Shown: positions 11,043 to 33,447 of the stretch, piece after piece
Layout: each line of letters opens with the position of its first letter
Numbering within the stretch: position 1 is the first letter of the stretch
Origin: an uncultured Bdellovibrionales bacterium
GTDB lineage: Bacteria; Myxococcota; XYA12-FULL-58-9; CAYXVF01
Assembly: GCA_964468125.1 (NCBI GenBank)
Contig: CAYXVF010000007.1
Coordinates: 16,531 to 80,530 of the forward strand
Reading direction: 5' to 3'
DNA length: 64,000 nucleotides
Notes under the pieces: model-generated
Told to the model about the DNA's origin: nothing
The model's database searches: none
What the model saw: the letters and a program-made list of their open reading frames with translations, nothing else
Position numbers and translations under genes: made by a program

Positions 11043-13379
11043 CTAGGCGCGCTCGTTGTCGTCTTCGTCGATTTCTTCTTCGTCGTCGACTTCTTCGTAC
11101 TCGTATTCGTATTCTTCGTCGTCGCCGGGCTCTTCGTCCTCGTCGACCTCTTCGTACTCGTATTCGTATTCGTCTTCGGCTTCGCGGACCTCTTCGCCCT
11201 CGTCGTCCCCGGCGGTTTCGTCCTCTTCCTCGTATTCCTCTTCGTCTTCGTCGCCCTCTTCCGTATCGACGGAGGGAGGATCGAAGGAGGGCGGCACGGG
11301 CATCTCGACGGTCGGTCGGCTTTCGAGCGCCGCTGTGGCGGCCCCAGGGGATTCGATCCGAAGTGCAAAGCGAAGGGACGCTTCCCCGTCGACGCGGAGC
11401 GCGAGTACGAGGGAGATCCCCTGGTCTTCCCCGCGAAAGCCATCCACGTCTTTGACCGTGGTGCGGATGCGGTCCGCCCACAGATCCACCGGTGCGGAGA
11501 AGCTCAGGTGCACGGTGGTGCCGTCGATGCCCTTCACCGCGACAGCCCTCGCCTCGTGGTACTCCGATTGGGACGGCTCGTGATTCTGGCCTTCGATCAC
11601 CAAGACCGCCTGGTCGAGCCGAATGGGGATCTCCGTGGCGTAGATCAGTCGGCTACCGTCGTTCGCGCGCACCTTGGTCTCGAACACGACCTCCGGTGCG
11701 TCGATGGGGATCCGCAAAGAGCGCTCAACATCCAGAGTCCGGCGAGCGACGCTCGCGAGGGGCAAGGATACGGTGGCATCATAGTGGTAGGTCAGGTCGT
11801 CTTCATCGACCTCATTGCGCTCCACAGACCACTCGGCGTGCTCCGGAGTCAGGTCCAGGCCCGAGCCACTGAAGAGCTCCGCAGCACTCGCCCCCGCATC
11901 GAGGATCCAGTCGCGCATCCCGGAACGATCCGAACGATCGGTGTCGAGCGGGAGGTCCTGCTCCCGGCGTGGCAGAGGGTCGAGCGGACCCCGCGGGCCC
12001 CGAGCTTCGAGCTCCTGAGCGGATGCGAAGGGTGCTTCGGAGGCGCGGGCAAAGAACACCTCGTTGCGCCGAGGAGGGACATCAAAGAGCGTCTTCGCTC
12101 CGAGTCTGTCGTCGAGCGTCCGAATCGCACCACCCTGATGCGGGTCTATCCACGCGGTCAAATAGCGGGTGTTGATGAACACTTCATCGCGAAGATCACT
12201 GTCGCGGTCGTCTTCCTCCTCGCCGATGAAATCCTCGTCTCCTTGGACGAGCGCATCGATCATGAGCTCCGCGCGCAGGAGCTTTTCGTAGGTCGACGAA
12301 CGAAGAAGTGGGTCGGTGAAACCTGCGTGACGCCCGCGCCAATAGGCGTCAGGGGACTGGGCCGCAAAGATCATGCGCTGCGCGGTAGCGAGCTCGCCGG
12401 CCCACTCCGCTTGAAGACCTTCTTCCTCCATCGTGGCGACGGTCTCGCGCAGCTTGTCGCTCGCCCGGAGCATTCGACGCGCGAGCGTGTCGACTTCACG
12501 AAAGCTCTGTAGAAAATCGTGCCAGTCCACCGGCGCTACGCCGCCCGCGTCCGGCTCGATCACGTCGCAGCAGCCATGAATGAACTTCAGAGCGGTCACC
12601 GAACGCACCTGCTCGAAGCTATCGCCCGGGCGGACGGTCTCGATCTCCGGTCGCTTCCCACCCAACGCATCGAGAAAGCTCGCAAGCCAGCCGCGTTCAA
12701 ACGCCCAGGCTCGGCTTCCGAGCTCGAAGCCGAGCCGTTCGCCTCGGACCCACACCGAGATCACCGGTCGGCTCTGCCCGCCGGCGCGGTCGACCACCGA
12801 GTCGATCCAGCGGTACACGTCGGAGCCGACGATGGAGCGCGACAGGGTGTCATCGAGAATGAAGGCGGGAAGCTTGTGGCCACCGCGCTCGAACACCCCG
12901 AGGCCGCGATGGGGATAGTCATCGCGCAAGAACTGAGAGGCGGCGCCAAAACTGTAGAGCGTATCCGTGTCGCTGAGGAAGCGCGGCACCTCGGTGGTCC
13001 AGGCCAGCTCCGGGAGCCAAATGCCGCTCGGTGCCTCGCCCACGAGCGATTCCCAGTACTCCGTGCTCATCTCGAGCTGGGCGCGAATGTCCTCTTCGGG
13101 CAGGAGCGCTGGCAAGCCGCCGTAGAACAGGCCTCCGAGGACCTCTACCTGCTCACGCAGAACGAGGGCTCGGATCCGCATGAGGAGCGGCTCGCGGAAC
13201 TTGGAGAGAAAATCCAAGAGGTGGCCGCCGAAGTGGAGGGCGACGCGGAGAGTGGGCCGAGCCTCGAGGTGTTCGATGAAAGGCTCGTAGAATCGCTCAC
13301 ATGCGGTGGAAAGCTCATCCTTTCCAACCGAAAGCGGCTGGTGAAAGGGAATGACGAGCTGGAGCTGAATCGGTTCCAT
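11043..13379 (-). CDS. glycoside hydrolase family 57-like protein with acidic low-complexity C-terminal tail
   Basis: N-terminal 'LVIPFHQPLSVGKDEL' is the GH57 region-I HQP motif. 778 aa. The last about 110 aa are D/E/Y-rich '(EYEYEYEEVDEDEE)x2'. Confidence 0.6.
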   Translation of the reverse strand: MEPIQLQLVIPFHQPLSVGKDELSTACERFYEPFIEHLEARPTLRVALHFGGHLLDFLSKFREPLLMRIRALVLREQVEVLGGLFYGGLPALLPEEDIRAQLEMSTEYWESLVGEAPSGIWLPELAWTTEVPRFLSDTDTLYSFGAASQFLRDDYPHRGLGVFERGGHKLPAFILDDTLSRSIVGSDVYRWIDSVVDRAGGQSRPVISVWVRGERLGFELGSRAWAFERGWLASFLDALGGKRPEIETVRPGDSFEQVRSVTALKFIHGCCDVIEPDAGGVAPVDWHDFLQSFREVDTLARRMLRASDKLRETVATMEEEGLQAEWAGELATAQRMIFAAQSPDAYWRGRHAGFTDPLLRSSTYEKLLRAELMIDALVQGDEDFIGEEEDDRDSDLRDEVFINTRYLTAWIDPHQGGAIRTLDDRLGAKTLFDVPPRRNEVFFARASEAPFASAQELEARGPRGPLDPLPRREQDLPLDTDRSDRSGMRDWILDAGASAAELFSGSGLDLTPEHAEWSVERNEVDEDDLTYHYDATVSLPLASVARRTLDVERSLRIPIDAPEVVFETKVRANDGSRLIYATEIPIRLDQAVLVIEGQNHEPSQSEYHEARAVAVKGIDGTTVHLSFSAPVDLWADRIRTTVKDVDGFRGEDQGISLVLALRVDGEASLRFALRIESPGAATAALESRPTVEMPVPPSFDPPSVDTEEGDEDEEEYEEEDETAGDDEGEEVREAEDEYEYEYEEVDEDEEPGDDEEYEYEYEEVDDEEEIDEDDNERA
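11083..11199. repeat. imperfect tandem direct repeat (about 57-60 nt x2) encoding the EYEYEYEEVD acidic tail
   Basis: 'gtcgacttcttcgtactcgtattcgtattc...' repeated at 11083-11139 and 11140-11199. Confidence 0.7.
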
Positions 13380-13412
13380 CGGGATGTGTATCCGGCGGAA
13401 CCAAAGGCGAAG

Positions 13413-14813
13413 TCAATCGACCCCCTGGAGCGCATCTAGGCGCGATCGGGCCTCTTCGTGGCGCGCATCTTCATCGTTGGGAATGTACTGGAGCAGCTCC
13501 TGAAGCGACTCGACGGCCCGCTGGCGCTCTCCGAAGCGAATCGCCTGCTCCGCCGCGAAGATGTACGACTCGAAGGTTTCCTGTAGCTCACGCTCGGCCT
13601 TCCGGAGACTCTTGCCGATATCGTAGTAGAGCGGCGGTCGCTCATCGATGCCCTCCAAGAAGAGACTGGCCTTCTCGAAGTACTCGATCGAGCGCGCGAG
13701 GTTCGGTCGAGCGACCGTCCGTGTATCGAAGGCTGCCTTGCCTAGGTCGAAGAGCTGCTGCGCCCGGTCCACGTCTACTTCGGGCAGTGGACTCTCGTTC
13801 ACCGAAATCCGAGCGACCCCCCACCGCGGCACCGAGCCCGCGAGGGGGTGGTGCACGAAGGCGATCAGATTGCGCCCGTTGTAGAGAAGCTCGCGCGGCA
13901 GGTCGATCGTGTGTCCCGCGGTCCAGCGCGCGGGGGAGGCCGGTGCGTGGCCAATGCGCTTGCCATTGAGCTCCACACTGACCTCGTCGTCCGTGTCGAT
14001 GCCCCCGGTTGCGAACTCGAGGGTCGCCTTGCCCCCTTCGTAGTCGAAGGCAAAGGTAGCCGAACGCGGCGTGAAGACATCCACCTTGCCCGCGCCAAAG
14101 CGCAGCTCGGCGTTGCTCTCGTTGACGACGAAGACCTCGCCGCTCCGATCGACTTTCGGGCGATGATTGAGAACGAAGTAGGCGCCCACGGTCGCGGCAC
14201 CCAAGACGAGCGCGAGGGAGAGCGCGGCAACGACTTTCGAGCGCGCGAAGCGACGGCGACGACGGCGACGACGCGACATCGATCCCGATGCCGAGGACGA
14301 ACGAGAGCCTGAGCGATCACTGCCGAGGCGTACGGGCGTGTTCGGACGACGGCCGGCGCTCATCAACTCGCGCACCGAGTCGGACTCGAACGCTTGGGTT
14401 TCCGCATTCGCCAGATGTCGCCGTTGACTGGCATTGCCTCCGTCCCAGGCGAGCCGCGAGCCACTCGGCCGGTTCCCCTGCTCCTCTTCGTCGAGCTCCA
14501 TCTTGAACTCGAAGGTCACCGGTCCCACGCCGATGCGGTCGCCGTCGTAGAGGTACGCCTCGGTGGTCAGGCTCTCGTTGAGGAAAGTTCCGTTGGCACT
14601 GCCGATGTCGCGAAGGACAAATTCTCCGTATTCGAAGGCGATCTGGCAGTGACCGCGGCTCACGTTGGTGTCGAGGAGCACGAGGTCGCAGGAGGGCATT
14701 CGGCCGATGGTGACGTGCGGCTGATCGAACTCAAACTCCCTCCCTTTGCCCTTGCCGGCGACGATGAAGAGCTTGAATCCCATACTCGCGGGAGTGTAGT
14801 GCGCCTCGCTCAC
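13413..14813 (-). CDS. FHA-domain membrane protein (cytoplasmic FHA - RS/RR-rich linker - single TM - periplasmic domain); terminal gene of the Tad-like operon
   Basis: 'MGFKLFIVAGKGKGREFEF...VTIGRMPSCDLVLLDTNVSRGHCQI...FVLRDIGSANGTFLNE' is an FHA domain. This is followed by 'RRRRRRRRFARSKVVAALSLALVLGAATVGAYFVL', a TM helix. GTG 14813 overlaps the tadC stop as TGA-G-GTG. Alternative ATG at 14783. Confidence 0.8.
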   Translation of the reverse strand: MSEAHYTPASMGFKLFIVAGKGKGREFEFDQPHVTIGRMPSCDLVLLDTNVSRGHCQIAFEYGEFVLRDIGSANGTFLNESLTTEAYLYDGDRIGVGPVTFEFKMELDEEEQGNRPSGSRLAWDGGNASQRRHLANAETQAFESDSVRELMSAGRRPNTPVRLGSDRSGSRSSSASGSMSRRRRRRRRFARSKVVAALSLALVLGAATVGAYFVLNHRPKVDRSGEVFVVNESNAELRFGAGKVDVFTPRSATFAFDYEGGKATLEFATGGIDTDDEVSVELNGKRIGHAPASPARWTAGHTIDLPRELLYNGRNLIAFVHHPLAGSVPRWGVARISVNESPLPEVDVDRAQQLFDLGKAAFDTRTVARPNLARSIEYFEKASLFLEGIDERPPLYYDIGKSLRKAERELQETFESYIFAAEQAIRFGERQRAVESLQELLQYIPNDEDARHEEARSRLDALQGVD

Positions 14814-14814
14814 C

Positions 14815-15672
14815 TCAGCCGCCTCGATACAGCCAGTCGAACACCAGGGGCCCCGCCAGAATCACCCAGATCGTCGGGAAGATGAAGACCACCAAGGGGA
14901 TCAACATCTTGACCGGAGCCTCGCCCGCGGCCTTTTCAGCCCGCTGGAAGCGCTCGCTGCGCAGCTGGTCCGCCTGGATCCGCAGGGTCTTGCCGAGACC
15001 GGTGCCGAGCCGGTCCGCCTGGATCATCGCCGAGAGAAAATTCGAGAGGGCCGGCAGACCGACCCGTGAGCTGACGGATTCCATCGCTTCTGCGCGGGTC
15101 TTGCCGACGCGGATCTCTCCGAGCATGCGCGCGAGCTCGTCGCGGAGTGGGCCGGCTTTTCCGCGATCCACCACCTTCGCGATCCCTGCGCCGAAATCGA
15201 GCCCCGCCTCCACGGAAAGCGTCAACAGATCGAGTTGGTAAGGCAGGTCACGCAGAATCAGCGCGTGCCGCTGCTTCACCTTGTCGCGCAGCCAGACGAA
15301 GGGATAGACCGCGCCCAAGACGAAGGTCGCAAGCGACAGCCAGATGGACCAACCGGTGGCGAGAGCGAACCACACGCCAAGGGCAAGCCCCCCGAGGCCC
15401 GCGAGCATCGCCCAGAGGAGCAGCTCCGCAGGGCTCAAGCCCTGGAGCCCCCCTGCCATCACGATCGCACGCTTGACCCGCGAGTCGAGCCTCTCAGGCA
15501 CCACGTGGCCAAACTGGCGCACCCACGTTTCGACGAGGGCCCCTCTGCGTGGGCGATTTCGACGATCCTGTCCCAGGCGCGCGATGGCCACCGCGGCGCG
15601 CACCCGCGAGGTCGCATAGTGGGCAAGGAGGAACGCCACCGTGGCGCAGAGGATGGGAACCAAAAGCTCCAT
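14815..15672 (-). CDS. tadC: Flp pilus assembly inner-membrane platform protein TadC-like (T2SSF domain)
   Basis: T2SSF-type sequence 'LPYQLDLLTLSVEAGLDFGAGIAK...' with 3 TM segments. ATG at 15672 overlaps the tadB stop (ATGA). Confidence 0.75.
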   Translation of the reverse strand: MELLVPILCATVAFLLAHYATSRVRAAVAIARLGQDRRNRPRRGALVETWVRQFGHVVPERLDSRVKRAIVMAGGLQGLSPAELLLWAMLAGLGGLALGVWFALATGWSIWLSLATFVLGAVYPFVWLRDKVKQRHALILRDLPYQLDLLTLSVEAGLDFGAGIAKVVDRGKAGPLRDELARMLGEIRVGKTRAEAMESVSSRVGLPALSNFLSAMIQADRLGTGLGKTLRIQADQLRSERFQRAEKAAGEAPVKMLIPLVVFIFPTIWVILAGPLVFDWLYRGG

Positions 15673-16514
15673 CACACGCGCACCGCAATGACACGCCGAA
15701 TGAACAACGCGCCACACGCCTCCATCAACACGACCAACGCGATCATCGTGTAGCCGAACCAGTGGCTCAACATCGGCCGAGTGAGGTCCGGTCGGATCGC
15801 GTCAAAGGCGAGCCATACCAGGACCGGCATCGCGCCAATCACGACCCCCTGGAGCCGGCCTTGCGCCGTGAGCGCACGGATACGTCCTTCGATCCGGAAG
15901 CGTTCCCGGATTGTGCTCGCGATCCGGTCGAACATCTCCGCTAGGTTGCCACCGAGTGACCTCGCCGTATTGACCGCGGTCACGACGAGCAACAGATCAT
16001 CGCTGCCGACCCGGCCCGCGAGATTCTCGAGCGCTTCTTCCGTGCTCGCGCCGAGGCGAATCTCCCGCACGGTGAGACCGAACTCCTGCGACAAGGGTGC
16101 GGAGGCTGTACGCCCCGTCTCCTCGAGCGCCTGCTGAAAGGTCATCCCCGCCCGGAGGGCCGCTGCGAGGCCGCCGAGCGCGTCGACGAGCTGGCGCTCG
16201 AAGAGTTTGATGCGACGGGCCCGATAGAAGCGGACGAGCAGGGTCGGGCTAGCCGCCCCAAATCCGACGAGGACGACCGTGACAACGGGGCCAAAGAGCA
16301 AGAGGCCCAGTGCCGCCCCCAAGGCCGTGATCGCCACCGTGAGGATCACGAGCTGACGCGGCCCGACGAAGAAGAACATTTCCGAGAGGTCGCTCACCCG
16401 CCGAGCCAGGTAGCGCTCCTCGTACTGGGCAAAGGCGCGCCGGAGCACGTCGATGACGACCACCGTGAGAAAGAAGACCGCGCCCGCGGTCATGAGAAGA
16501 ACGAGCACGTCCAT
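15672..16514 (-). CDS. tadB: Flp pilus assembly inner-membrane platform protein TadB-like (T2SSF domain)
   Basis: 'FERQLVDALGGLAAALRAGMTFQQALEE...' is a T2SSF/GspF-like domain with N- and C-terminal TM helices. 1-nt overlap with cpaB. Confidence 0.75.
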   Translation of the reverse strand: MDVLVLLMTAGAVFFLTVVVIDVLRRAFAQYEERYLARRVSDLSEMFFFVGPRQLVILTVAITALGAALGLLLFGPVVTVVLVGFGAASPTLLVRFYRARRIKLFERQLVDALGGLAAALRAGMTFQQALEETGRTASAPLSQEFGLTVREIRLGASTEEALENLAGRVGSDDLLLVVTAVNTARSLGGNLAEMFDRIASTIRERFRIEGRIRALTAQGRLQGVVIGAMPVLVWLAFDAIRPDLTRPMLSHWFGYTMIALVVLMEACGALFIRRVIAVRV

Positions 16515-17344
16515 CAGTTCGGCACCGTCTCGGTCTCGCGGCGGTCGCCGCGAATGATCTCGACCTTGAAGATCTTGGACTGTGTCTTCGAGATCCGTTT
16601 CGAGCGCTCACCGGTGAGCAGGGTCTGGAGAGTCGTACGACCTTCTCCGAGGTCATAGATCTCGTTGTCCTCCGGCGAACGCAGCGTGAGGTAAAGCTGG
16701 CCGAGCTCCTGCCCCAAAAGAAGCATCTCCGCCGCCTCCGGGAGCACGTGCAGGGTGACCGTGTTGTAGGCGCGCTCCGCCTCGCTCAAAAGCCTCCGGT
16801 TCGTGCGACCCCCGATCCTTCCCGTTGCGAGGACGATCACGTTCTGAAGCATCGTGACCGCGGCCATGTCCCGCCTCCCGTCGCGAAAAACGCCGAGCAC
16901 GTCGACCCGGTCGCCCGGCTCGATCCAGTGGTGCACAGAGCTTTCCGGGCTGACGCGTACGGACACGGCACGCCCCTTCTCCTGAATCGTACTCGAGAGC
17001 TTCTGATCACCGGCGAGCGTGTGAATGTGCGAGTAGAGAAGCACGTCACCCGCGAGCATGGGCGTTCCGAGCTTTCGGCCCACCACCGGCGCGCGATTGA
17101 AGTCTTCTACCGTGACCACCGACCGCGTCACTGAGCGGCGCGGCAAGGTGCCTACCGCCAATGCTTCGCGGGTCAGGGTATCGCCGACCTGCAAATCGCG
17201 GTTCGCGACGATCACCTCCACCGGGTCCCAACCGCGGGTAATCGCCTCGCGCTGCTTCTTGACGAGCAAGTAAGCCACGACACCGGCGAGAACCGCGAAG
17301 ACCGCGGCAATGATGAGGGGAGTACGTCCTTGCAGCATGGTCAT
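16514..17344 (-). CDS. cpaB: Flp pilus assembly protein CpaB/RcpC (SAF domain)
   Basis: N-terminal TM 'LIIAAVFAVLAGVVAYLL' followed by a SAF-like domain 'VIVANRDLQVGDTLTREAL...'. Typical CpaB length of 276 aa. Confidence 0.75.
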   Translation of the reverse strand: MTMLQGRTPLIIAAVFAVLAGVVAYLLVKKQREAITRGWDPVEVIVANRDLQVGDTLTREALAVGTLPRRSVTRSVVTVEDFNRAPVVGRKLGTPMLAGDVLLYSHIHTLAGDQKLSSTIQEKGRAVSVRVSPESSVHHWIEPGDRVDVLGVFRDGRRDMAAVTMLQNVIVLATGRIGGRTNRRLLSEAERAYNTVTLHVLPEAAEMLLLGQELGQLYLTLRSPEDNEIYDLGEGRTTLQTLLTGERSKRISKTQSKIFKVEIIRGDRRETETVPN

Positions 17345-17345
17345 C

Positions 17346-17549
17346 TCACGGAATGGGCAAGCTCAGGCCCGTGTGAATGGAATCGATGTAGATGTCGAAG
17401 GTGTTGACGAAGAGTCCAAAGACCGAGACGCGCCCGGCGCCGTCGGGTTCGGGCAGGTAAGGCACAAAGAGTACGACCGCCATCATCAGGAGGAGCAGGC
17501 CGTACTCCGTGGTGGCTTGGCCGCGTTCACTCTCATGGATTCGTTTCAT
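17346..17549 (-). CDS. flp: Flp/Fap-family pilin (67 aa prepilin)
   Basis: 'MKRIHESERGQATTEYGLLLLMMAVVLFV' carries the Flp G-x4-EY processing motif followed by a hydrophobic helix. GGGAGG SD 7 nt upstream. The ATG overlaps the upstream stop (ATGA). Not present as a separate entry in the ORF track; it is embedded in ORF 17346..17873. Confidence 0.75.
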   Translation of the reverse strand: MKRIHESERGQATTEYGLLLLMMAVVLFVPYLPEPDGAGRVSVFGLFVNTFDIYIDSIHTGLSLPIP

Positions 17550-18229
17550 CGTCGCGCCTCCCATCGCAGGGTGGCCGTGCTCTTCGCCTGCCCTGCTTCC
17601 TCGTCGCTGTAGACCGCGAGGTCGAGGTTCTCCTCCCCGTCGCCGAAGGAGGCGAACGCCCGCCGTCCATCTGAGAGTTGCGCGCGGGCCGGACCAAAGC
17701 GCTCTCCGTATCGCTCGATCAACGCATCGCCCTCGACCCTGCAACTCAGAGTCACAACCTCGCGCACTACCGCACCGTCGCGGCTCGCGCTGTGGTGGAG
17801 GGGCTCGCAGCTCTCGTCGATCGGAGCGCGTACGGTGTAGCCGCCCTCTCCAAAGAAACGACGACTCACCCACGCCACGGAGACCTTGCCCTGGCGAGCG
17901 ACCACGACGCTGCGACGCTCGTCACCGTCGGACGCGGTCAAGAGCTCCTCCTCTTCGTTGTAGCGGCGACTCACCACAAACCCCTCGCCGCGCCAGACCG
18001 CTTCGTAGTGCTCGACGATGGTGATCGGGTCGTCCATGCTCAGGAAGTAGGCGAGCTGTCGCTCATCACCATTGAGACGAACCCCTTCCCCGGCAGACAG
18101 GAGCCGATGCTCCGGGTAGTAGGCCCAGCGCAGATCGACCGGTGCACGACCGTCGCGGGCGGCGGCCACACCAGCGAGTGCCGCGAGCGCGCATCCGGCG
18201 AGGAGCACCATCGGAAAAGTACGGATCAT
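17546..18229 (-). CDS. secreted hypothetical protein encoded inside the Tad-like operon
   Basis: Signal peptide 'MIRTFPMVLLAGCALAALAGVAAA', then an acidic soluble domain of about 200 aa. ATGA overlaps on both sides. Confidence 0.6.
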   Translation of the reverse strand: MIRTFPMVLLAGCALAALAGVAAARDGRAPVDLRWAYYPEHRLLSAGEGVRLNGDERQLAYFLSMDDPITIVEHYEAVWRGEGFVVSRRYNEEEELLTASDGDERRSVVVARQGKVSVAWVSRRFFGEGGYTVRAPIDESCEPLHHSASRDGAVVREVVTLSCRVEGDALIERYGERFGPARAQLSDGRRAFASFGDGEENLDLAVYSDEEAGQAKSTATLRWEARR

Positions 18230-19353
18230 CGACACCTCCTGGATTGGGCATCGGCGCACCCCATGAATGCGTTGCCTCGAGCGTTCAGGGCCTCGAGCAT
18301 GTTGCTGCAGAGATCGCGGGGGTTGTCGAAAATCGGCAAGGTCTCGAACGACGTCACCGCGCCGTCCTCCTGTAGCTGCCCGCGCGAGACCCCGGTACGG
18401 CTGAAGGGATTGAACTGCCCGGCGAGCTCTTCGTAGCGTTCGCGATCAACCGCAACGCAGGAGCGGGCGTCGAGATAGGGGCGCGACACGACGTAGCGTC
18501 CCGCGTCCTTCGCCCCAACGAGGCCGAGAAGCCCACCCACCAGACCTCCGCCGGGAAGAACCTTCGGTGCCTCATCGTGAAAGCGCTCGACGACGTGCGC
18601 AAAGGCGCGCCGCGACTCGACCGACTCACTGGGCAGAACCGAGTAGCCGCTGTTGATTCGCCAGCTGTCCACGAGGAGCGTGGAGTCAACCGGCTGCCCT
18701 TCGTCGCGAAGCTCCCGTCCCTGCTGCCCCTGCACCACCGGGGTGAGGTCAAAGCGCGAAACCTCGGCGAGCGCAGCGAATCGTTCCCGGTCAGAGGCGC
18801 GCACCGGCGCAAGAATGCGAACGGAGCCGCGGCCGGTGACGAGACCGCGGTCGTTTAACCCGGCCCGTTGAAAGAAGCCCGCCGCGATGTCGTTCGTAGA
18901 GCCTCCCAATCCCAGCGCTCCGAGGATGAGAGACACGGTCGCGTTCGGCGCGGGGATCTCGAGGTTGGCCACGTCGGGAAGCACCGGCGCGCGCTCCTGG
19001 CGAGCTGCCGTCGGGAGCATCACCGCCGAGACGCTTTGCCGTGCCTGACCTGGAAGAAGCCTCGTGCGTGCCGCGTCGAGATCGAGATAAAGCGCACCGA
19101 CGCGGTCCCGCACGCGATCCCTGGCCTCGTTGAACTTCTCCGTATGCCTGGCGTTTTGACTCTCATAGTCCGAAAGGGGCTCTTGCGCGAAGGCCCAGGT
19201 ATTGAATCGCGCGATCTCCTGGGACTTGAGCTTAAAGAGGCCGACATCGATCAGGTAGACGGAGCCGTAGAACACGCCGATGAGAAGCGGCATGATCAAA
19301 GCGAACTCGGTCAACGCGGAGCCGCGCTCGTATTTCTCCGTTCGCCCTCTCAT
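18226..19353 (-). CDS. TadE/TadG-like pseudopilin (375 aa)
   Basis: N-terminal 'ERGSALTEFALIMPLLIGVFYGSVYL' is the TadE-like motif (PF07811-type). Confidence 0.7.
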   Translation of the reverse strand: MRGRTEKYERGSALTEFALIMPLLIGVFYGSVYLIDVGLFKLKSQEIARFNTWAFAQEPLSDYESQNARHTEKFNEARDRVRDRVGALYLDLDAARTRLLPGQARQSVSAVMLPTAARQERAPVLPDVANLEIPAPNATVSLILGALGLGGSTNDIAAGFFQRAGLNDRGLVTGRGSVRILAPVRASDRERFAALAEVSRFDLTPVVQGQQGRELRDEGQPVDSTLLVDSWRINSGYSVLPSESVESRRAFAHVVERFHDEAPKVLPGGGLVGGLLGLVGAKDAGRYVVSRPYLDARSCVAVDRERYEELAGQFNPFSRTGVSRGQLQEDGAVTSFETLPIFDNPRDLCSNMLEALNARGNAFMGCADAQSRRCR

Positions 19354-21005
19354 CAGAACATCATCGTGTTGTCGGCGAAGAAGTCTGCGATCACACCGCT
19401 CAATCCCAGGCTACCCAGGAGTCTGTCGGTCACGACACTCTTTGGCGCAAGGCGAGCGCCCCAGTAGGGATTGAAGAGATTCGGCGGCTCCCGCCAGGCA
19501 CCAGGGCGATGGTAGTAGACCTGCGCGCGGGCAATCGCGTTGACCCCACGAAGCGCTCCCGTCCCCAGGAGCCCGTCTTCCCCGATGCGCGCGTCGAGAC
19601 TCGCCACTTCTTCGCCGCGCCGGATCTCGAAGCTCAGATCCGACCCGGATTCCATTTCCCCCGGCGTCTTGTTCAAGAACACCCAAACGTCGGGCTGGTT
19701 GTAGTCGCGCACACCGTCAGCGGCGGCGTCGCTCTTCGACTTGAACCGAAAGTAGCGGCCGAGGCCTCGCCACTGGAGCCGCTGGCCGAACTCGTTCTCG
19801 TCGACGCATTGGAAGCCCGCCGCGTCTGGATCGCTCACCAGGGTAAAGAGCCTGGCTCCGAGAAAACCGGTGCTACCGTAGTCGTCGGGCTTCTCGTAGC
19901 GGCAGTAGCGATAGCCATCGCGGCCGGACTGCAGACTCGCAAAACCATCCCGCGCCGCGCGCGCGAGCGCAGGAATCGTCAAGATTCCGGTGCGAATGTC
20001 TTTCGAGGCCATCACCTCGCCGCGGGAGAGAAACGACGCTTCGTCCGCGCTGCGACCGGTATCCTCGAGCGTGTTCTCGTCGCCGAGACGAGTTAGGAGC
20101 TTCGAGGTCCCCTCGAATTGCAGGCCCGCAAAACCGGTCGCGAGCTCGTTGAGGCGTTCGCTGAGCCGCTTGCCCGCGCGTCGAGTGGACTTCTCCTGCG
20201 TCACCGATTCGAGCAGCTCGAGGGGCTCGGTGATCTCGTCGAGGATCCCGTTGCGCCACACGATCGTTCGCTGCCGCGCACCCGCAGCGAAGCGCGACGC
20301 ATTGATCACCTCTGCAAACGCCCGCTTTGATTCCGGAGACTTTTGGAGCGCCCCCGGGTCGAAGGCGTCGATGTAGGCGTACACGTTGTAGGCGTTGAAC
20401 GCGTAGGAGAGTGGGTGCAAACGCGCCCGCGGATCGTTTGCTTCGGCGATCTCTGGAGCTCCTTCGAGCAGGCGAGCGGTAGTGCTCGCCACCATGCCCG
20501 CCGCCATCGCGGTGTAGAGGGTGCTGAAGGCTGGCTCGCTCGCAAGTGCGGCCTCGAGGGCCGTCAGCTTCACCTCCAGCAAACCCGCCCGCACCTCGTA
20601 GACCGCTTGCAGCGATTGGCCGATGCCTTCGAGCGCCGAACCGGCGCTCGCGGTGAAGGGGATCGCGCTCAAGAAGCGACCGTAGGAGGTCGTGATGTCT
20701 CCGAGGTATCCGATGACCCCCACCGAGTAAGTCGAGCGCGAGACTTCTGCGTGCAGCTCGAGCAGCTCGAGCTGTCGAGCGGCGATCGCGCGGTTGCTGA
20801 AAGCGATGAAGTTGAAGCTCCGCGCAGACTGAGTGGCGAGCGAGTAGGCCGATGCATCGGCTGCGTTTTGCAGGGTGATCTTCTCGTAGACGGCGCGAGA
20901 GAAGTTGTAGGAAGTGTACATGCCGATCGCGAGGATCACGAGGGCTACAACCCCAAGTAGCGCCACCTGGCCGCGTTCGCGACGCGATGCTCGTCGCAAG
21001 CTCAT
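19353..21005 (-). CDS. TadG-like pseudopilin / pilus-associated protein (about 550 aa)
   Basis: N-terminal 'RRERGQVALLGVVALVILAIGMY' is Tad_N/TadG-like. Start placed at ATG 21005, which overlaps the upstream stop as ATGA. The listed ORF extends to 21029. Confidence 0.65.
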   Translation of the reverse strand: MSLRRASRRERGQVALLGVVALVILAIGMYTSYNFSRAVYEKITLQNAADASAYSLATQSARSFNFIAFSNRAIAARQLELLELHAEVSRSTYSVGVIGYLGDITTSYGRFLSAIPFTASAGSALEGIGQSLQAVYEVRAGLLEVKLTALEAALASEPAFSTLYTAMAAGMVASTTARLLEGAPEIAEANDPRARLHPLSYAFNAYNVYAYIDAFDPGALQKSPESKRAFAEVINASRFAAGARQRTIVWRNGILDEITEPLELLESVTQEKSTRRAGKRLSERLNELATGFAGLQFEGTSKLLTRLGDENTLEDTGRSADEASFLSRGEVMASKDIRTGILTIPALARAARDGFASLQSGRDGYRYCRYEKPDDYGSTGFLGARLFTLVSDPDAAGFQCVDENEFGQRLQWRGLGRYFRFKSKSDAAADGVRDYNQPDVWVFLNKTPGEMESGSDLSFEIRRGEEVASLDARIGEDGLLGTGALRGVNAIARAQVYYHRPGAWREPPNLFNPYWGARLAPKSVVTDRLLGSLGLSGVIADFFADNTMMF

Positions 21006-21982
21006 GGTGCTTCTCCGAGGCTGAACCACACGGGCTCGCGGCGGTTGTCCTCAAACAAATTCGACTGCATCTGCATGGCGTAGCTTGCGCGCAGAGGCAG
21101 GAGATAGAGGTCGTGGCGCTCGGCGAGCCATCGCAGGGTCCGCACTTCCTTGAGCCACTGGCTGGTCGTGAAGAAATCGTCGATGGGTCCGTCGCCGTCC
21201 GAAGAGCGCACCGCGTCCGACAACGTGCGCCCATCGCTCAGGCGCGTCTCGAGCTGCACCCAGTCACCCAGGTCGCTATTGAACGTCCGGCTATGCAGAA
21301 GCTCCTGCGCGAGCCAGAGCTCGAAGAGAATCCGGTTCACGAGCGGGATCCGCAGCGGATAGAGCACACGCACCTCGAGGGCGAGCGTGCCGAGCCCGTC
21401 GGGCGTGTTGGGATCGGCGAACATCGCCACGTCGTCAAAGTCGATCTCGCCGCTCGGGTAGCGCAGGGGCGCGCGCGGATCGACCGATTCGGAGAGGCGC
21501 GCCTGTCGGCTCGCCCACTCCCGAGCCGCCTCGAACTCTTCGCGGGTCGGGCGGGTCACGGCGACTTCGATGAGGGAGATGTCCTGAGCGAGCCCGGCGA
21601 TCTCGACGCCCAGCAGATCGCCGGCGAGACGCTCCACGGTGGCGGTGCCCGTGTCCACAGCCTCGGTGATCTCAGCGGCAGCTTTGACCTTGGCCCACGT
21701 TGCGAGATAGCGGCCGGCGTCATCCGTGCGATCGTAGAGGGGCAAGGTCGCCACCAGCGCGGCGTTGCGCATGACGTTCCAGTCCGCGTTGTGCACGATG
21801 CCCGCGCGGGTCGCGCAGTAGGCGGCGTATTCGGTGAGAATGCGACCGTGCTGCACGAGCATCAGCTGCAGCGCGCCGAGGGCGGCGAAGATCATCACGG
21901 GCATGATGATCGCCGTCTCGACCAGTGCTTGGCCGCGCTCGCCGCGGCGACCGCGACCCGTATGGGACCCAAGGCTCTTCAA
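21002..21982 (-). CDS. TadE-like pseudopilin (326 aa); first gene of the operon
   Basis: 'GERGQALVETAIIMPVMIFAALGALQLMLV' is the classic TadE N-terminus. A 300-nt non-coding region follows upstream (21983-22288). Confidence 0.7.
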   Translation of the reverse strand: MKSLGSHTGRGRRGERGQALVETAIIMPVMIFAALGALQLMLVQHGRILTEYAAYCATRAGIVHNADWNVMRNAALVATLPLYDRTDDAGRYLATWAKVKAAAEITEAVDTGTATVERLAGDLLGVEIAGLAQDISLIEVAVTRPTREEFEAAREWASRQARLSESVDPRAPLRYPSGEIDFDDVAMFADPNTPDGLGTLALEVRVLYPLRIPLVNRILFELWLAQELLHSRTFNSDLGDWVQLETRLSDGRTLSDAVRSSDGDGPIDDFFTTSQWLKEVRTLRWLAERHDLYLLPLRASYAMQMQSNLFEDNRREPVWFSLGEAP

Positions 21983-22288
21983 TGACCTACTTCCTGACGA
22001 GGCGCCCCGCCGGCGAAGGCGGACGCGCTCCCTTTCCTTATCGGCACCGGCAGGTGCGCTGGTGCGTGAGTCCGGCGATCGAAAACCGAGCTAAACGCCT
22101 GATTTTTGGTGGATTTCCACAGGGCTGGGCGGAGCCCAGGGCCCGCCCGGTCGAGCTGCACGCCGCGCCCGTCGCCGATCTGTGGTGGCCTGTCCACAGA
22201 TGTGTTCGACATCCTACAGGGACACACCACACTTTTTGCCGCCGATCGCGGTTTTCCGGGCCTTCTGACGTGGGTGGGTGATGGTCCG

Positions 22289-23608
22289 ATGTTTGCAGAA
22301 CCTTTCCGCGGCATGGATCGTTCCAAACTGAGAGTCTCATCATTCGCGCTCGCGCTGTCGGTGACGGTCGGCTGTGGCGTCGAATGGGTGGACGTAGAAG
22401 GAAGCGCTGTCGACTCGAGCCTCTTTGTCCCGAACGGGAGCACCGGCGGGGAGCAGAACGCGGGCGGCAACGACAACGACTCGGCGCTCGACTGTCCCGT
22501 CGACGAGCAGGCCGAATGGTCACGCTCGGGCTATCACGATTTCCTCCAGGCGAATTGCGGCCTCTGCCACCTCTTCGGTGAGCCCGCCACCGGCGCCTTC
22601 GCAGACCCGGACCTCTCTGTCGCATACTCCGAGTATTCGCTGCGCCCGGAGCAGGTCGTCGAGTTTTCGCTGAGCGCCACGCACAAGCCACCGTTCACGG
22701 GCCCGCATCTGCAGCCTGAGCTCGATGCGATCCTCGACGACTGGGAGGCGGTGCTGGGGCGCGTTGCCGCATGCGAGGCCGCGGAAGCGGAGAACACGAA
22801 CGACACGGAGTCACCCGGCGAGGAGCCTCGGGAAATCGTCACCGACCCGCTACTCGCGACCGTTGTCGAGTTCACCGCCCCGCTCGCCATGAACGCGACC
22901 GAAGAGGGGGTCACGCTGAGCTGGGAGCTCGCGAGCGCGCTGACGAGCGTCACGACGCCGGCGAGCCTCACCGACGTCGTCTTCGAGCTGACGGTTCGCA
23001 CGGTGGAGACCGCCACCGGGCAGCGCGCCTACCTGTTCTCCTCCCCCACCTTCAGCACGGGACCGCAGGCACTGAGCTTTGGCCGAATCGAAGTCCGCGT
23101 AAATGCCGCTAGGCCGAGCAGCGCGACGACCTTTCACAGCCTCGCGATCGCCGTTCCTTCAACGAGCACGATGACCGCGACCACCTCGGCGATGCCGGTC
23201 CCCTTCGACTTCAGCGCGAGCGACACCCTCGAGGTGGGCTTTGGCTTCATCAACGCCATCGACGACTTCGATCCCACCGAGCCTCCGCCGGTGGGTGGCG
23301 GAGACGACCCAGTCGGCGGCGGTGCTGATCCGGTTCCCGGCGTCACCTTCGCAACACTGAGCACCGGCGACGGGGTCTTCGCCCTCGAGTGCGTGAGTTG
23401 CCATTCAGCGGCGAATCCTGCTGGCGGACTCGATCTCACGAGCTACATGAGCACGCTCATGACGGTCACACCGAACGACCCGGATGCGAGCACGCTCGTG
23501 CAGCGCATGGAAGACCCAATGAACCCGATGCCACCAGCGGGGCTCTTGCCCCAGGCAATGATCGATAGCGTCCGCGAATGGATCGCATCAGGAGCACCTG
23601 AGGGCTGA
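22289..23608 (+). CDS. lipoprotein with two CxxCH motifs and a C-terminal planctomycete-cytochrome-C (PSCyt1)-like domain
   Basis: Lipobox 'LALSVTVGCG'. 'NCGLCHLF' and 'ECVSCHSAANPAGGLDLTSY...NPMPPAGLLPQAMIDSVREWIASGA' fit the PSCyt1 consensus C..CH...GGL.L...MPP...L...WI..GA. Alternative start at ATG 22313. The listed ORF starts at TTG 22106. Confidence 0.6.
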   Translation: MFAEPFRGMDRSKLRVSSFALALSVTVGCGVEWVDVEGSAVDSSLFVPNGSTGGEQNAGGNDNDSALDCPVDEQAEWSRSGYHDFLQANCGLCHLFGEPATGAFADPDLSVAYSEYSLRPEQVVEFSLSATHKPPFTGPHLQPELDAILDDWEAVLGRVAACEAAEAENTNDTESPGEEPREIVTDPLLATVVEFTAPLAMNATEEGVTLSWELASALTSVTTPASLTDVVFELTVRTVETATGQRAYLFSSPTFSTGPQALSFGRIEVRVNAARPSSATTFHSLAIAVPSTSTMTATTSAMPVPFDFSASDTLEVGFGFINAIDDFDPTEPPPVGGGDDPVGGGADPVPGVTFATLSTGDGVFALECVSCHSAANPAGGLDLTSYMSTLMTVTPNDPDASTLVQRMEDPMNPMPPAGLLPQAMIDSVREWIASGAPEG

Positions 23609-23644
23609 GGCCCTCCGGAGAGACGAGAGAGAGGAGTTGAGATC

Positions 23645-25237
23645 GTGAGCCATCTGCTTCTTCTAACCCTGCTGAGCCAAGCCCCTCAGGTTGAGACGGA
23701 GTTGGTCCTGAGCGAGGCCAACCCGGAGGAAACGATCACCATCGACATTCCTTCCGGCGAGGTGTCGATTCTGCAGCTGAACGTCCTCGACCCGGACTTC
23801 CCAGACGAAGGGGAGCTCTACATCAACGAGATGGGGCCGATCGCGCTCTTTCCCGGCGGAAACGGCGGCCTCGACAGCCAAACCGTCAACATCAACATCG
23901 CGCTCTCCCCGGAGCAGCAGGGTTGGTTCGTGGCCGGCCAGAATGCCCTGCGCTTCACCCGGGTCGCGACCGCGGGATACACGATTTTTAGGATCACCGC
24001 TCTCGGCGATCTCGCTCTCCTCACCTACGACGCGGTCATGCCCACCACGGACCCGGTGGACCAAGCGATGGAGAAGGCCTCCCTGCTCTATCGCCGGCTC
24101 GTCGGCCTACGCACGTCCGTGGACAACCCAACGGTCCGAGCGATGGCCGACTACATCGCCATCGACGATTGGGTCGGTGCGGCGATGGTCGCGACCGAGG
24201 AAGCGGGCTTCTACAACCACGTGGTTCGGGATTTTGCCGCGAAGATGTCAAACCAAGAGGTGAGCGTTGGAGCGCCACTCAACGACTTCGTAGCGACGAT
24301 CGTAGGCATCACCCGGGACGAGCTCGATGCGCGTGAAATGCTCACCGGCGACTTCTTCTATATGGCGACCGGCGACGCAGTGGCCGTGCCCTTGGACGTT
24401 CTTCAGGATGTGGTGACCTCGAACAATCACTACTCCGCCCTCGAGAACGAGCGCTACGACCTCGCTGCAGTTCTGAGCCGCATCGATCAGCAGTACATTC
24501 GCGACCCCTCTGCGACCGACGAGCTCGTAAGCCACCCGGAACCCGCCGGGGTGCTGACCACGCGAGGCTGGATGGAAGCGCACGCGACCGCGGGGACCAA
24601 CCGACGACTCGCGGAGTTTGCGATCAGCGAGTTCACCTGCACGGAGATGGAGCAGTGGGCGGACTCGACGAGCCCAGACGCATTCGTCTGGCGCGACGTG
24701 GACCGCTTCCCTGCCGGTGATGCCGCCCGCTACCAGACCGAGTGCAAGTCCTGCCATGCGAACCTCGATGCGTTCGCCGGCGCCTTCGCGCGCTTCGACT
24801 TCGAGAACGGGTTCACGAAGTACGCGCCGTACTACGCGGACGGCGAGGATGACCCGGACGCGATGAAGCAAGAACCCATGGGCGTCTCCGAGAAGATGAC
24901 CCACAACTCGGACGTCTTCCCGGAGGGATACTCGCTCACCGACGACCACTGGACGAACCTCGCCCGAAGCCCGGCAAACGAAGCACGCTTTGGTTGGCGC
25001 GGCGATGTGAACGAAGGGCAAGGAATCGCGAGCTTCGCGGAGGCGATCGCCAACTCGACGGCCTTCTCGCGCTGCATGGTCGAGCGGGTATTCAACGAGG
25101 TGTGCCTCCGTGCTCCAAGCGCTGCCGAGCTCGAGCTCATCAGTGGCCTCGCCTGCGACTTCGAGGCGAGCGGATACAACCTCAAGCAACTCTTTCAAAC
25201 CGTGGCTGCTCGTCCCGAGTGCCTCGGAGCGCACTAG
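23645..25237 (+). CDS. CxxCH-containing hypothetical protein (530 aa), possibly related to planctomycete DUF158x/159x families
   Basis: GTG start with a GAGAGAGGAG SD. Single 'ECKSCHANLDAF' heme-binding-type motif in the C-terminal third. Family assignment is by gestalt only. Confidence 0.5.
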   Translation: MSHLLLLTLLSQAPQVETELVLSEANPEETITIDIPSGEVSILQLNVLDPDFPDEGELYINEMGPIALFPGGNGGLDSQTVNINIALSPEQQGWFVAGQNALRFTRVATAGYTIFRITALGDLALLTYDAVMPTTDPVDQAMEKASLLYRRLVGLRTSVDNPTVRAMADYIAIDDWVGAAMVATEEAGFYNHVVRDFAAKMSNQEVSVGAPLNDFVATIVGITRDELDAREMLTGDFFYMATGDAVAVPLDVLQDVVTSNNHYSALENERYDLAAVLSRIDQQYIRDPSATDELVSHPEPAGVLTTRGWMEAHATAGTNRRLAEFAISEFTCTEMEQWADSTSPDAFVWRDVDRFPAGDAARYQTECKSCHANLDAFAGAFARFDFENGFTKYAPYYADGEDDPDAMKQEPMGVSEKMTHNSDVFPEGYSLTDDHWTNLARSPANEARFGWRGDVNEGQGIASFAEAIANSTAFSRCMVERVFNEVCLRAPSAAELELISGLACDFEASGYNLKQLFQTVAARPECLGAH

Positions 25238-25249
25238 GAGATGGGAACC

Positions 25250-25963
25250 ATGGCGAAGATTCTGCTGCGCTCACCGATTCTGCTGGCGCTCGCTCTCGCA
25301 GCCTGCTCGGCGGAAGAAGTTCAACCGACCGAGCAGGTCGCGATGAGCGGTGACGATGGGACGGGCTCCTCGAGTGGCCCGAATACACCGACCGAACCGG
25401 GCGGCGGCGCGACACCGGACGAACCGACGGACCCCATCGTGCCAACCCCCGAGCCCGTTGAGGTATGCACGGCTCCCGTGGCGACGGCCGCGGTCCCCGC
25501 CGAAGCCTCGGTGGTGCGTGCTAATCGTGCCCTCGACAATTTCGTCTCCTGCCTCGGGACCGGCACACCGAGTCGCGCTTCCGTCGACGCCTGGCGTGAA
25601 AACCGCGCGGCGCTGTCGACGACCGGAGACGCGGAGACAATCGGCGCCCCGGTGCTCCAAGCGCTCAACTCGATCGCGGCCGAAGTCTGCAACGATCTGG
25701 TCGAGCTCGAAGGCGCCCCCGAGGCGACGCCGAGGATATTTGCCGGGGTCGACCTCGACGCCGGAGCCCTGAGCGAGCGCGAGTCCGTGATGCAGCGGAT
25801 CGCCCGTTCGTGTTGGGGCCGAGAAGCGAGCAGCGCAGAGCGCGAACGCCTCGCCTCCGGCCTGGATGAAGCCTTTGCGGAAACCCCGGACCCGGGAGCG
25901 CGCATCGAGGGGTTGTTCCTGTGCACCTCGATGTTGAGCTCCCTTGCAGCGATCGAGATTTAG
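25250..25963 (+). CDS. hypothetical lipoprotein (P/T/E-rich linker then Cys-containing domain)
   Basis: 'MAKILLRSPILLALALAACSAEE' is a lipobox. AGGAG SD about 10 nt upstream of ATG 25250. The listed ORF starts at 25241. Confidence 0.55.
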   Translation: MAKILLRSPILLALALAACSAEEVQPTEQVAMSGDDGTGSSSGPNTPTEPGGGATPDEPTDPIVPTPEPVEVCTAPVATAAVPAEASVVRANRALDNFVSCLGTGTPSRASVDAWRENRAALSTTGDAETIGAPVLQALNSIAAEVCNDLVELEGAPEATPRIFAGVDLDAGALSERESVMQRIARSCWGREASSAERERLASGLDEAFAETPDPGARIEGLFLCTSMLSSLAAIEI

Positions 25964-25990
25964 AGCTCAGAACGTTTGGAGTGAGGACCC

Positions 25991-32403: not shown

Positions 32404-33036
32404 CTAGAGATTGAACTCGAGCCGCACCGGCGTCACGCCGTACTCGATCGCTTTTCCATCCACGACCTTCGGATTGTATTTCCATTTGCGTACCGCCTTG
32501 AGGGCGGCCTGCTCGAAGACCCCACGCGGATCTGCGTCGATCACGCTCGGGTTGAGCACCTGGCCCGCGGTTCCCACCCGAAACTTCACCGTGACGTACC
32601 CGGTGATCCCGCGTTCCGCGGCCCGTCTCGGATACATCGGCTGCACCCGAACAATCGGCGTAGCGTCTTGGTCACCGGTCGGACGCGCACCAGGATTGAA
32701 GCCACCCCGTGGTCTGAAGCCGGACCCTCCGGAGAAGCCCGTCGCTTTGAAGTTCGTTTGCGGCGCGTCGATGGTTGCAGAGGCGCTGTTGTTGTCGACA
32801 GTGGAGAGCTTTGGCGGGGGGGGTTCCTTCGGAGGCGGCGTGCGATTGGGCTTCTCGCGCACCTTTTGTTGCGTCACCGAGTCCGTGGGCACGCGGATGA
32901 AGTCGGTTACGAGACCGGCGCGCTTGTCGTCGCTTTGACGACGGGCGCCTTCGATCAGCGCACGCATCCCGAGAAAGAGCGCGAAAGTGATGATGAAGGC
33001 GATCGGCGCCGTGAGCACTACCCTTGGGATCTTCAC
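32404..33036 (-). CDS. tonB: energy transducer TonB
   Basis: N-terminal TM, Pro-rich spacer 'PPPKEPPPPK', and C-terminal TonB domain 'YPRRAAERGITGYVTVKFRVGTAGQV...'. Confidence 0.85.
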   Translation of the reverse strand: MKIPRVVLTAPIAFIITFALFLGMRALIEGARRQSDDKRAGLVTDFIRVPTDSVTQQKVREKPNRTPPPKEPPPPKLSTVDNNSASATIDAPQTNFKATGFSGGSGFRPRGGFNPGARPTGDQDATPIVRVQPMYPRRAAERGITGYVTVKFRVGTAGQVLNPSVIDADPRGVFEQAALKAVRKWKYNPKVVDGKAIEYGVTPVRLEFNL

Positions 33037-33042
33037 GTCAGA

Positions 33043-33444
33043 TCATTCCCGCACCGCGGAGATGGCCACATCCGGCACGCCCGCTTGCTTGGCCGCATCG
33101 ATCACCTTCACCAGGAGCCCGTTGCGGCTGTTTCGGTCCGCCTGAATCACCACTGTTCCTCTTGGATTCTCAGCTCGCAAGCGCTCGATGTTCGCCCGGA
33201 CAGTCGAAATGTCCACACTGCGCTTGTCGATCCACACCTCGTCCGTCTCCGTGATCGCGATCAGGATGCTCGCCGATTCCTTCGACATGGCGGTCTTGGC
33301 CGCGGGGCGCTTCACCTGGACCCCCGCCTCCTTCACGAAGGACGCGGTCACGATGAAGAAGATCAGCATGATGAAAACGACGTCGAGCATCGGTGTGATG
33401 TCGACTTCGGTTTCGTCACCGCCTCCAGTCCGCACTCGCCGCAT
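33043..33444 (-). CDS. exbD: biopolymer transport protein ExbD/TolR
   Basis: 'DITPMLDVVFIMLIFFIVTASF' TM followed by the ExbD periplasmic domain. 133 aa. Confidence 0.85.
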   Translation of the reverse strand: MRRVRTGGGDETEVDITPMLDVVFIMLIFFIVTASFVKEAGVQVKRPAAKTAMSKESASILIAITETDEVWIDKRSVDISTVRANIERLRAENPRGTVVIQADRNSRNGLLVKVIDAAKQAGVPDVAISAVRE

Positions 33445-33447
33445 CGA

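Follow-up and report, generated by a model that had tools for sequence, protein, structure and literature searches.

The window analysed here is a stretch of 64 kb of DNA from an uncultured bacterium of the Myxococcota, and the gene under study is an open reading frame (ORF) located at 13413..14813 on the minus strand, which encodes a protein of 466 amino acids (aa) made up of an FHA domain, a linker, a single transmembrane helix, a beta-sandwich and a helical bundle (hereafter, the FHA membrane protein). This gene closes a Tad operon and was identified as the very probable counterpart of MXAN_4649, a gene of Kil cluster II of Myxococcus xanthus. It starts with GTG, and its GC content at third codon positions (GC3) is 0.79, a coding-type value with the same bias as in the surrounding genes. 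An original prediction, made from the letters of the same DNA, had given no strand and had not recognised the Kil-cluster-II family; it had placed the GTG in overlap with the stop codon of the preceding gene, tadC, where the sequence actually reads TGA-G-GTG and leaves a gap of 1 nt. An alternative ATG start is present at 14783, 30 nt downstream, and corresponds to the position used in most homologues according to their alignment. The gene is tightly packed behind tadC whichever of the two starts holds.

The layout of the protein was established using Pfam, an alignment of the family and an AlphaFold2 model of the whole protein built on 16 homologues. The cytoplasmic FHA domain (aa 13-105; 14499..14777, minus) was delimited by Pfam, by the family alignment and by the closest solved structures, GarA and OdhI, and forms a sandwich over the same residues in the model. 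It is followed by a disordered cytoplasmic linker (aa 106-190; 14244..14498, minus), recognised from conserved motifs and from a predicted local distance difference test (pLDDT) score below 50 across aa 109-189, and by a single transmembrane helix (aa 191-216; 14166..14243, minus), which appears as one long helix of the same extent in the model and agrees with hydropathy and with a positive-inside bias. Beyond the membrane, the predicted structure places a CBM-like jelly-roll beta-sandwich at aa 225-342 (13788..14141, minus; aa 227-341 in the whole-protein model) and a five-helix TPR-like bundle at aa 347-464 (13422..13775, minus; aa 348-463 in the model), both presumed to be periplasmic. Among 174 family members, the 15 residues before the transmembrane helix hold a mean of 3.3 Lys plus Arg versus 1.8 after it, and this asymmetry supports an orientation with the N-terminus in and the C-terminus out. 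The succession of FHA domain, linker, single transmembrane helix and 250-aa periplasmic domain that had been read from the sequence was thus recovered (Pfam match at aa 17-104, AlphaFold2 layout, topology deduced from the charge bias). The Arg/Ser-rich nature of the disordered linker was likewise confirmed, with 'SRRRRRRRRFARSK' present at aa 180-193, directly before the hydrophobic stretch, and with a run of eight Arg (14250-14273) just ahead of the transmembrane helix.

The gene is the last of a nine-gene, co-oriented and tightly packed Tad unit on the minus strand. It is immediately preceded by cpaB (kilB-like; 16514..17344, minus; TIGR03177 at 160 bits and Pfam RcpC) and by two T2SSF platform genes, tadB (kilG-like; 15672..16514, minus; Pfam and tblastn) and tadC (kilH-like; 14815..15717, minus), the latter with a likely ATG start at 15672, so that the tadB stop and this start share 1 nt (TGATG). 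No convincing terminator was detected between tadC and the FHA gene; the only terminator-like element was a weak hairpin that overlaps the stop codon. A sigma-70 promoter scan returned 0 sites and is uninformative, as such organisms may use other promoter types. Co-orientation, tight spacing and a synteny conserved across Myxococcota loci agree with the proposal that the gene is an integral member of the operon. Pfam searches on about 40 further ORFs of the window revealed neither a CpaF/TadA ATPase nor a secretin, and no prepilin peptidase, Ser/Thr kinase or PP2C phosphatase.

The Kil system of M. xanthus is a Tad-like apparatus that is needed to kill prey in a contact-dependent manner (Seef et al. 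2021, PMC8460266; Herrou et al. 2025, PMC12075869). Supplementary file 1 of Seef et al. 2021 (PMC8460266) gives the order MXAN_4648 (FHA plus TPR), MXAN_4649, MXAN_4650 (KilH), MXAN_4651 (KilG), MXAN_4652 (KilB), then pilins, and lists MXAN_4649 (MXAN_RS22570) unnamed, as "FHA; HHpred PrgH" with an HHpred value of 4.1e-10. In M. xanthus, a transcriptome-based predictor groups MXAN_RS22530-22635 as a single operon of 20 genes. The split Tad locus of the window, composed of pilins, CpaB and platform genes with neither ATPase nor secretin, matches this Kil cluster II type. Comparisons were performed with Kil cluster II of Myxococcus landrumensis (locus L001), whose protein P0017 stands in for MXAN_4649. 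The order in L001 (TadE, Tad (TadG-like), TadE, further genes, a 75-aa Flp, further genes, CpaB, T2SSF, T2SSF, P0017, FHA-TPR) agrees with the MXAN_4648-4661 table of the same supplementary file.

Using tblastn, the window and L001 were found to be collinear over CpaB (43% identity), TadB (50%) and TadC (50%), followed in both by the FHA gene. In BLASTP, two regions of the window protein matched P0017, with an identity of 49% for the FHA domain (E 1e-22) and of 28% over 194 aa for the C-terminal module (E 8e-15). An alignment of 16 sequences including Myxococcus contains 41 invariant columns, 17 of them within the C-terminal module, and W331, E277 and N283 are invariant residues of this module. 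Membership in the MXAN_4649 family was decided on placement behind cpaB-tadB-tadC and on homology of the FHA, transmembrane and C-terminal parts, both of which were observed. On the strength of the collinear homology, the matching gene order and the two-region BLASTP match, the window gene was considered, with high confidence, as the MXAN_4649 counterpart and hence as an accessory protein of a Kil-type Tad system. Both proteins share the position directly after kilB-kilG-kilH and the succession of FHA domain, linker, transmembrane helix, beta-sandwich and helical bundle. They differ in the linker, which in Myxococcus extends over about 300 aa and contains 'E(E/R)TE(V/L)' motifs in several copies, versus 85-92 aa in the window protein with a single clade-invariant Thr and the Arg run. 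They also differ in what follows, since the FHA-TPR gene of MXAN_4648 type that comes next in Myxococcus is absent from the window, where a GH57 gene is found instead.

The family had already been noticed: the supplementary table of 2021 holds the same FHA/PrgH idea, and reviews flag the FHA proteins of kil clusters as signalling candidates. Full-text searches for MXAN_4649 or MXAN_RS22570 gave no matches and no characterising paper, and the literature found on neighbouring locus tags was limited to the Kil papers, a review and an unrelated 2011 paper on a porin/lipoprotein. What is new here is that a fold was assigned to the periplasmic module and SctD membership rejected, that the FHA domain has a GarA-type pocket, that conserved Thr motifs outlast this domain in FHA-less members, and how large and how taxonomically restricted the family is.

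In 8 of 9 independent Myxococcota loci (window included), cpaB-tadB-tadC is directly followed by a family member. In L001, L004/L005, L006, L007, L008 and L009, this member comes right behind the second T2SSF gene, and its distance from tadC varies among loci between an overlap of 4 nt and a gap of 85 nt. Loci L004/L005, L006 and L007 share the order CpaB, T2SSF, T2SSF, family protein, FHA-TPR, with 2 to 85 nt after tadC; L009 has the nine-gene layout of the window, and its tadC and FHA gene overlap by 4 nt. When the C-terminal module alone was used in an exhaustive profile search, 1420 cluster representatives were retrieved at E <= 1e-3 (311 at E <= 1e-30), and the full FHA-transmembrane-beta-helical architecture was recognised in at least 174 retrieved sequences after a second homologue search. 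Among the best 150 hits and 17 close homologues, 101 had this architecture, about 20 were fragments or FHA-less variants, and 41 were large, probably secreted proteins with the beta-sandwich alone in 3 to 13 repeats. The source taxon names of the homologues were all Myxococcota, Myxococcales or 'Deltaproteobacteria', and the window's own clade (Myxococcota) comprises three GTDB species representatives, all of them metagenome-assembled genomes. The tandem beta-sandwich repeats occur in very large proteins of up to about 2500 aa (P0041, P0042, P0051, P0062, P0066 and others), and at least one (P0041) of four such proteins scanned carries subtilase and RTX domains. The repeat is matched by no Pfam model above cut-off, so that it seems to represent a family of extracellular domains without a curated entry.

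The FHA domain (aa 17-104 in Pfam) matched both the generic PF00498 (E 9e-17) and the overlapping PF16697, Yop-YscD_cpl (E 2e-17). Its closest relatives, by sequence as well as by predicted fold, are GarA and OdhI (33-38% identity, phmmer E 1e-15, Foldseek E 2e-11), followed by FhaA and EmbR; YscD, PscD and a further structure from a type III secretion system (T3SS), 4d9v, appear no higher than between ranks 43 and 49, with about 20% identity. Residues of the phosphothreonine pocket (G37 R38, S52 R53 H55, N74 G75) are invariant and T76 nearly so in the 16-sequence alignment, and they align residue for residue with those of GarA. The domain is thus predicted to be a canonical phosphothreonine reader. 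The FHA domains of SctD proteins, as seen in the YscD and PrgH structures, are not known to have these pocket residues. GarA/OdhI and FhaA (Rv0020c) offer the nearest FHA domains with a conserved pocket, and GarA/OdhI share with the window protein a Thr motif in a disordered segment beside the FHA domain, so that a phospho-switch acting in cis or in trans is conceivable. The differences are that GarA/OdhI are soluble, that FhaA acts in cell-wall synthesis, and that none of them has a transmembrane helix, a periplasmic module or a pilus context. Coupling to Ser/Thr-kinase signalling, suggested in the original prediction, is plausible given the pocket (R38, S52, R53, H55, N74) and the conserved Thr motifs, whereas the partner kinase sought in its vicinity was not found by Pfam in the 64-kb window.

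These Thr motifs lie in a linker that is otherwise unconserved across the family and varies from 9 to 655 aa. The pattern TR[IV][STG], typically in the form '(D/E)ETRIT...ETRISAMP', is present in 64 of the 174 members, 52 of which carry it twice, against a mean of 1.4 members for shuffled linkers. In the window protein, T139 (codon 14397-14399), within 'AETQAF', is invariant in a nine-sequence alignment of its clade. A subclade of FHA-less proteins of 313-322 aa (P0256-P0279; L008 3191-4147) is still followed by the FHA-TPR gene; the family gene of L008 starts at the tadC stop, which leaves no room for an FHA domain. Of 19 such proteins, 17 have kept the N-terminal Thr motifs and 16 have two copies, in the form 'xRTRLLPAP..QQTRIGA..REIAPRxG'. 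The persistence of the motifs in the FHA-less proteins shows that their conservation does not depend on an FHA domain in the same protein. They would be docking sites, probably phosphorylated, for FHA domains in trans.

The C-terminal module (aa 217-466, 250 aa) is all-beta then all-alpha in the predicted structure, and reached a pLDDT of 92 when modelled alone (247 aa). On these models, it is a CBM-like jelly roll joined to a five-helix TPR-like bundle. Foldseek neighbours were CBM35, CBM36, CBM6, the carbohydrate-binding domain of BcsB and domain III of rhamnogalacturonan lyase (E 1e-5 to 1e-3, probability about 1), together with the TPR domains of FKBP51/52. Sequence identity to the BcsB domain and to CBM35/CBM36/CBM6 is 10-18%, with low template modelling (TM) scores, and no conserved sugar- or Ca-binding residues were identified in the CBM-like part. 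A profile search of PDB sequences with the module gave nothing significant (best E 0.1, TPR regions), and Pfam and NCBIfam searches on 11 C-terminal sequences found no family above cut-off; the sub-threshold Pfam and NCBIfam matches were CBM-like, BcsB and TPR, in agreement with the fold search. Proteins with ring-building motifs (SctD/PrgH, SctJ), GspL/M, PilO/N and PilP were absent from both fold-search lists. The comparison with YscD, PrgH, GspL and PilP folds that the original prediction had called for thus returned CBM-like and TPR folds and none of the four, and no ring-building fold was seen in the predicted periplasmic structure by Foldseek.

Other known systems were also considered. 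The protein scored 49.9 bits against 120.25 for TIGR03354 (TagH/Fha of type VI secretion systems, T6SS), over the FHA region only, and 42 bits against 650 for NF033760 (GltG), over FHA, linker and transmembrane helix only, and both memberships were rejected. Fha1/TagH, with PpkA-PppA, is comparable in that an FHA protein likewise links the assembly of an envelope machine to Ser/Thr phosphorylation, and GltG of Myxococcus gliding is also an FHA-transmembrane-periplasmic inner-membrane protein of an envelope machine; their C-terminal domains differ from that of the window protein, and only the FHA, linker and transmembrane region aligns. No curated model of a canonical Tad component (TadZ/CpaE, TadA/CpaF, RcpA/CpaC, TadD, TadV) matched, the whole protein hitting FHA models only, and its description as a non-standard Tad component was accordingly retained.

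The remainder of the operon consists of five minus-strand genes upstream of cpaB. A gene for a TadE-like minor pilin (326 aa; 21002..21982; Pfam) comes first, then one for a TadG-like large minor pilin with a Pfam Tad N-terminal domain, comparable to KilN (558 aa; 19353..21029; Pfam, tblastn), and one for a second TadE-like minor pilin, comparable to KilL (375 aa; 18226..19353; Pfam, tblastn). The 558-aa and 375-aa products match the corresponding L001 genes weakly, and the pilin-like genes at 18226-21982 share order and sizes with the KilM/KilN/KilL 'Tip' minor-pilin sets (Herrou et al. 2025, PMC12075869). The next ORF (237 aa; 17546..18259) has no Pfam or NCBIfam match and carries a lipobox-like 'MVLLAGC' ('LLAGC') near the N-terminus of its product; in L009, the corresponding position is taken by a gene of 250 aa, and the ORF may encode a conserved lipoprotein of Tad/Kil-type operons. 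It is followed by a Flp-type pilin gene (67 aa; 17346..17549), recognised by the motif 'GQATTEYGLLLL' without a Pfam match, whose product is 45% identical to that of a small gene upstream of cpaB in L002.

On the other side, 33 nt downstream of the FHA gene, a GH57 alpha-amylase/4-alpha-glucanotransferase-like gene (11043-13379, minus) encodes a product with an extremely acidic C-terminal tail of about 90 aa (DEDEEEYEEEDE...). Divergently from the Tad operon, the region 22106-27442 (plus) holds four genes, a PSCyt1 (planctomycete cytochrome c) domain protein followed by proteins of 530, 240 and 483 aa, of which the 530-aa and 483-aa ones have no Pfam match. Further away, a TonB-C protein, small ExbD-sized ORFs, a MotA/ExbB-family protein with a long N-terminal DUF3450-like extension and a separate DUF3450 protein (32404-36231, minus) together look like a TonB/Exb-type energy-transduction cluster, and a 1323-aa ORF without any Pfam match precedes a PEGA-domain protein at 45002-49980 (plus). 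As regards other loci, conserved MshEN-domain proteins, an HD_5 protein, an ECF sigma factor and a zf-HC2 anti-sigma factor are encoded upstream of cpaB in L004 (1-7253), L006 (1-5208) and L007 (1-5110), with in L004 an additional PP2C phosphatase bearing a cNMP-binding domain; this block, absent from the window, contains possible regulators of the cluster. In L009, a PilZ-domain gene lies directly after the FHA gene on the opposite strand (11307-11663), and a second FHA protein of 437 aa is encoded 2 kb further on (13220-14533).

Taken as a whole, the FHA membrane protein was interpreted as a lineage-specific bitopic inner-membrane accessory subunit, counterpart of MXAN_4649, that would tie the Tad platform to an assembly dependent on Ser/Thr phosphorylation, a reading that we hold to be evenly balanced between right and wrong. 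How it might do so is somewhat less secure, although a phosphorylated-linker FHA scaffold at the TadB/TadC platform is a possible mechanism. The protein would sit in the inner membrane with TadB/TadC, and a Ser/Thr kinase encoded elsewhere would phosphorylate the linker Thr motifs, T139 being the candidate in the window. These sites could then be bound by FHA domains, namely the protein's own GarA-like FHA domain, an FHA-fused KilF ATPase, KilD or the FHA-TPR protein of MXAN_4648 type, and the resulting multivalent, phosphorylation-dependent scaffold would recruit or activate cytoplasmic parts at the platform. The CBM-like/TPR-like module may anchor or position the complex via a glycan (peptidoglycan is the obvious candidate), CpaB or the secretin. 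The over-representation of FHA proteins in kil clusters and the recruitment of KilD without a functional Tad machine, both reported in the Kil papers, were counted as fitting this model, as was the single operon predicted for MXAN_RS22530-22635. Several observations weigh against it. No experiment on MXAN_4649 or on any family member was found in full-text searches of the literature, and reviews of 2023 and 2025 class the remaining kil-cluster proteins as being of unknown function. Kinase, phosphatase, ATPase, secretin and second FHA gene were all unfound in Pfam scans of the 64-kb window. The window protein has a single clade-invariant Thr and shows SASGSM in place of its relatives' 'T.TGS[FY]', and the pT+3 residue varies between clades, so that a role of the motif other than as an FHA ligand is conceivable. 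The CBM-like fold is of a generic kind, Foldseek E values reach only 1e-5 to 1e-3 at low TM scores, and a ligand site could not be recognised. Finally, in L002/L003 tadC and the FHA gene are parted by two genes, of 117 aa and 2159 aa, and GH57 then follows.

The same architecture could also be read as an SctD/YscD/PrgH-like ring scaffold that bridges the Tad platform to a secretin through periplasmic oligomerisation. The protein has indeed the topology of SctD (YscD/PrgH/EscD/PscD), with an N-terminal cytoplasmic FHA fold, one transmembrane helix and a periplasmic domain, encoded in the operon of a trans-envelope machine; PF16697 scores 63.5 bits against a cut-off of 33.2, HHpred links MXAN_4649 to PrgH at 4.1e-10 (Seef et al. 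2021), and BcsB, a structural neighbour, forms periplasmic crowns. However, the SctD model TIGR02500 reached 22.2 bits (E 5.9e-5) for a cut-off of 86, and the alpha-beta-beta-alpha-beta ring-building motifs, three of which make up the periplasmic part of SctD, are lacking from a module predicted to be a jelly roll followed by a TPR-like bundle. The gene context is Tad instead of T3SS, no T3SS family being found in the window by Pfam, and the FHA domain, distant in rank from the SctD-type ones and nearer to GarA/OdhI, keeps its pocket residues. With a sub-cut-off SctD score and a non-SctD periplasmic fold, the PrgH/YscD label reflects the FHA domain alone, and the resemblance is, on sequence and model, only topological. 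The mirroring of YscD/PrgH advanced in the original prediction thus held for topology and fell for family membership; membership of an SctD-type ring-builder family is largely refuted, and a ring-scaffold role was considered quite improbable.

A different role, that of a transmembrane sensor and not of a structural subunit, would have the periplasmic module detect a prey-derived or envelope-stress signal (released peptidoglycan, polysaccharide, membrane perturbation) and relay it inward via the phospho-tail and the FHA domain, so as to set off the assembly of the Tad/Kil machine. Glycan binding is suggested by the CBM-like fold, conservation of the cytoplasmic Thr motifs extends to members without an FHA domain, and Kil mutants still show NG-KilD clusters upon contact with prey; as KilD is recruited without a functional Tad machine, the Kil authors postulated an upstream signalling step and pointed to FHA proteins, in a cascade possibly encoded in the clusters. 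Such a receptor was nevertheless judged unlikely, for neither a ligand-binding site nor a sensor-domain family was identified (CHASE-type and similar matches were at chance level), the protein has no enzymatic output domain, and its gene order is fixed to the platform genes, as is usual for structural subunits. The gene could otherwise be a passenger, a generic FHA membrane protein (for instance of cell-envelope or, given GH57, glycogen metabolism) that travels with the operon and has no Tad role. GH57 follows in the window and in L002/L003, where two genes part the FHA gene from tadC, and a database gene call (P0038) even fuses both genes. This adjacency is limited to the window's own subclade, GH57 being no neighbour in L001, L004, L006, L007, L008 and L009, and a functional tie between the two genes was rejected. 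Adjacency to tadC, on the other hand, holds down to 25-30% identity across Myxococcota, Myxococcus and the FHA-less subclade included, with a spacing of the translational coupling type, which leaves the passenger explanation very improbable.

Returning to the accessory subunit tied to the Tad platform, its study corrects a tempting 'PrgH/YscD-like' label and provides handles for experiments, namely an intact phosphothreonine pocket, Thr motifs that outlast loss of the FHA domain, and a well-predicted periplasmic module for which no curated family model exists. Among the FHA proteins examined in these loci, it alone combines a transmembrane helix with a periplasmic module, and it is fixed beside the platform genes. 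It is a well-defined candidate for how prey contact triggers Kil assembly at the contact site. The family might go as far as forming the link between prey contact and Kil/Tad assembly, a speculative extension that we hold to be distinctly unlikely, in which the periplasmic module would sense a change in glycan or envelope and the phospho-Thr tail would nucleate an FHA network (its own FHA domain, FHA-TPR, KilD and FHA-KilF) on the TadB/TadC platform. If true, this would be a transmembrane trigger of a kind not described for any type IV filament system.

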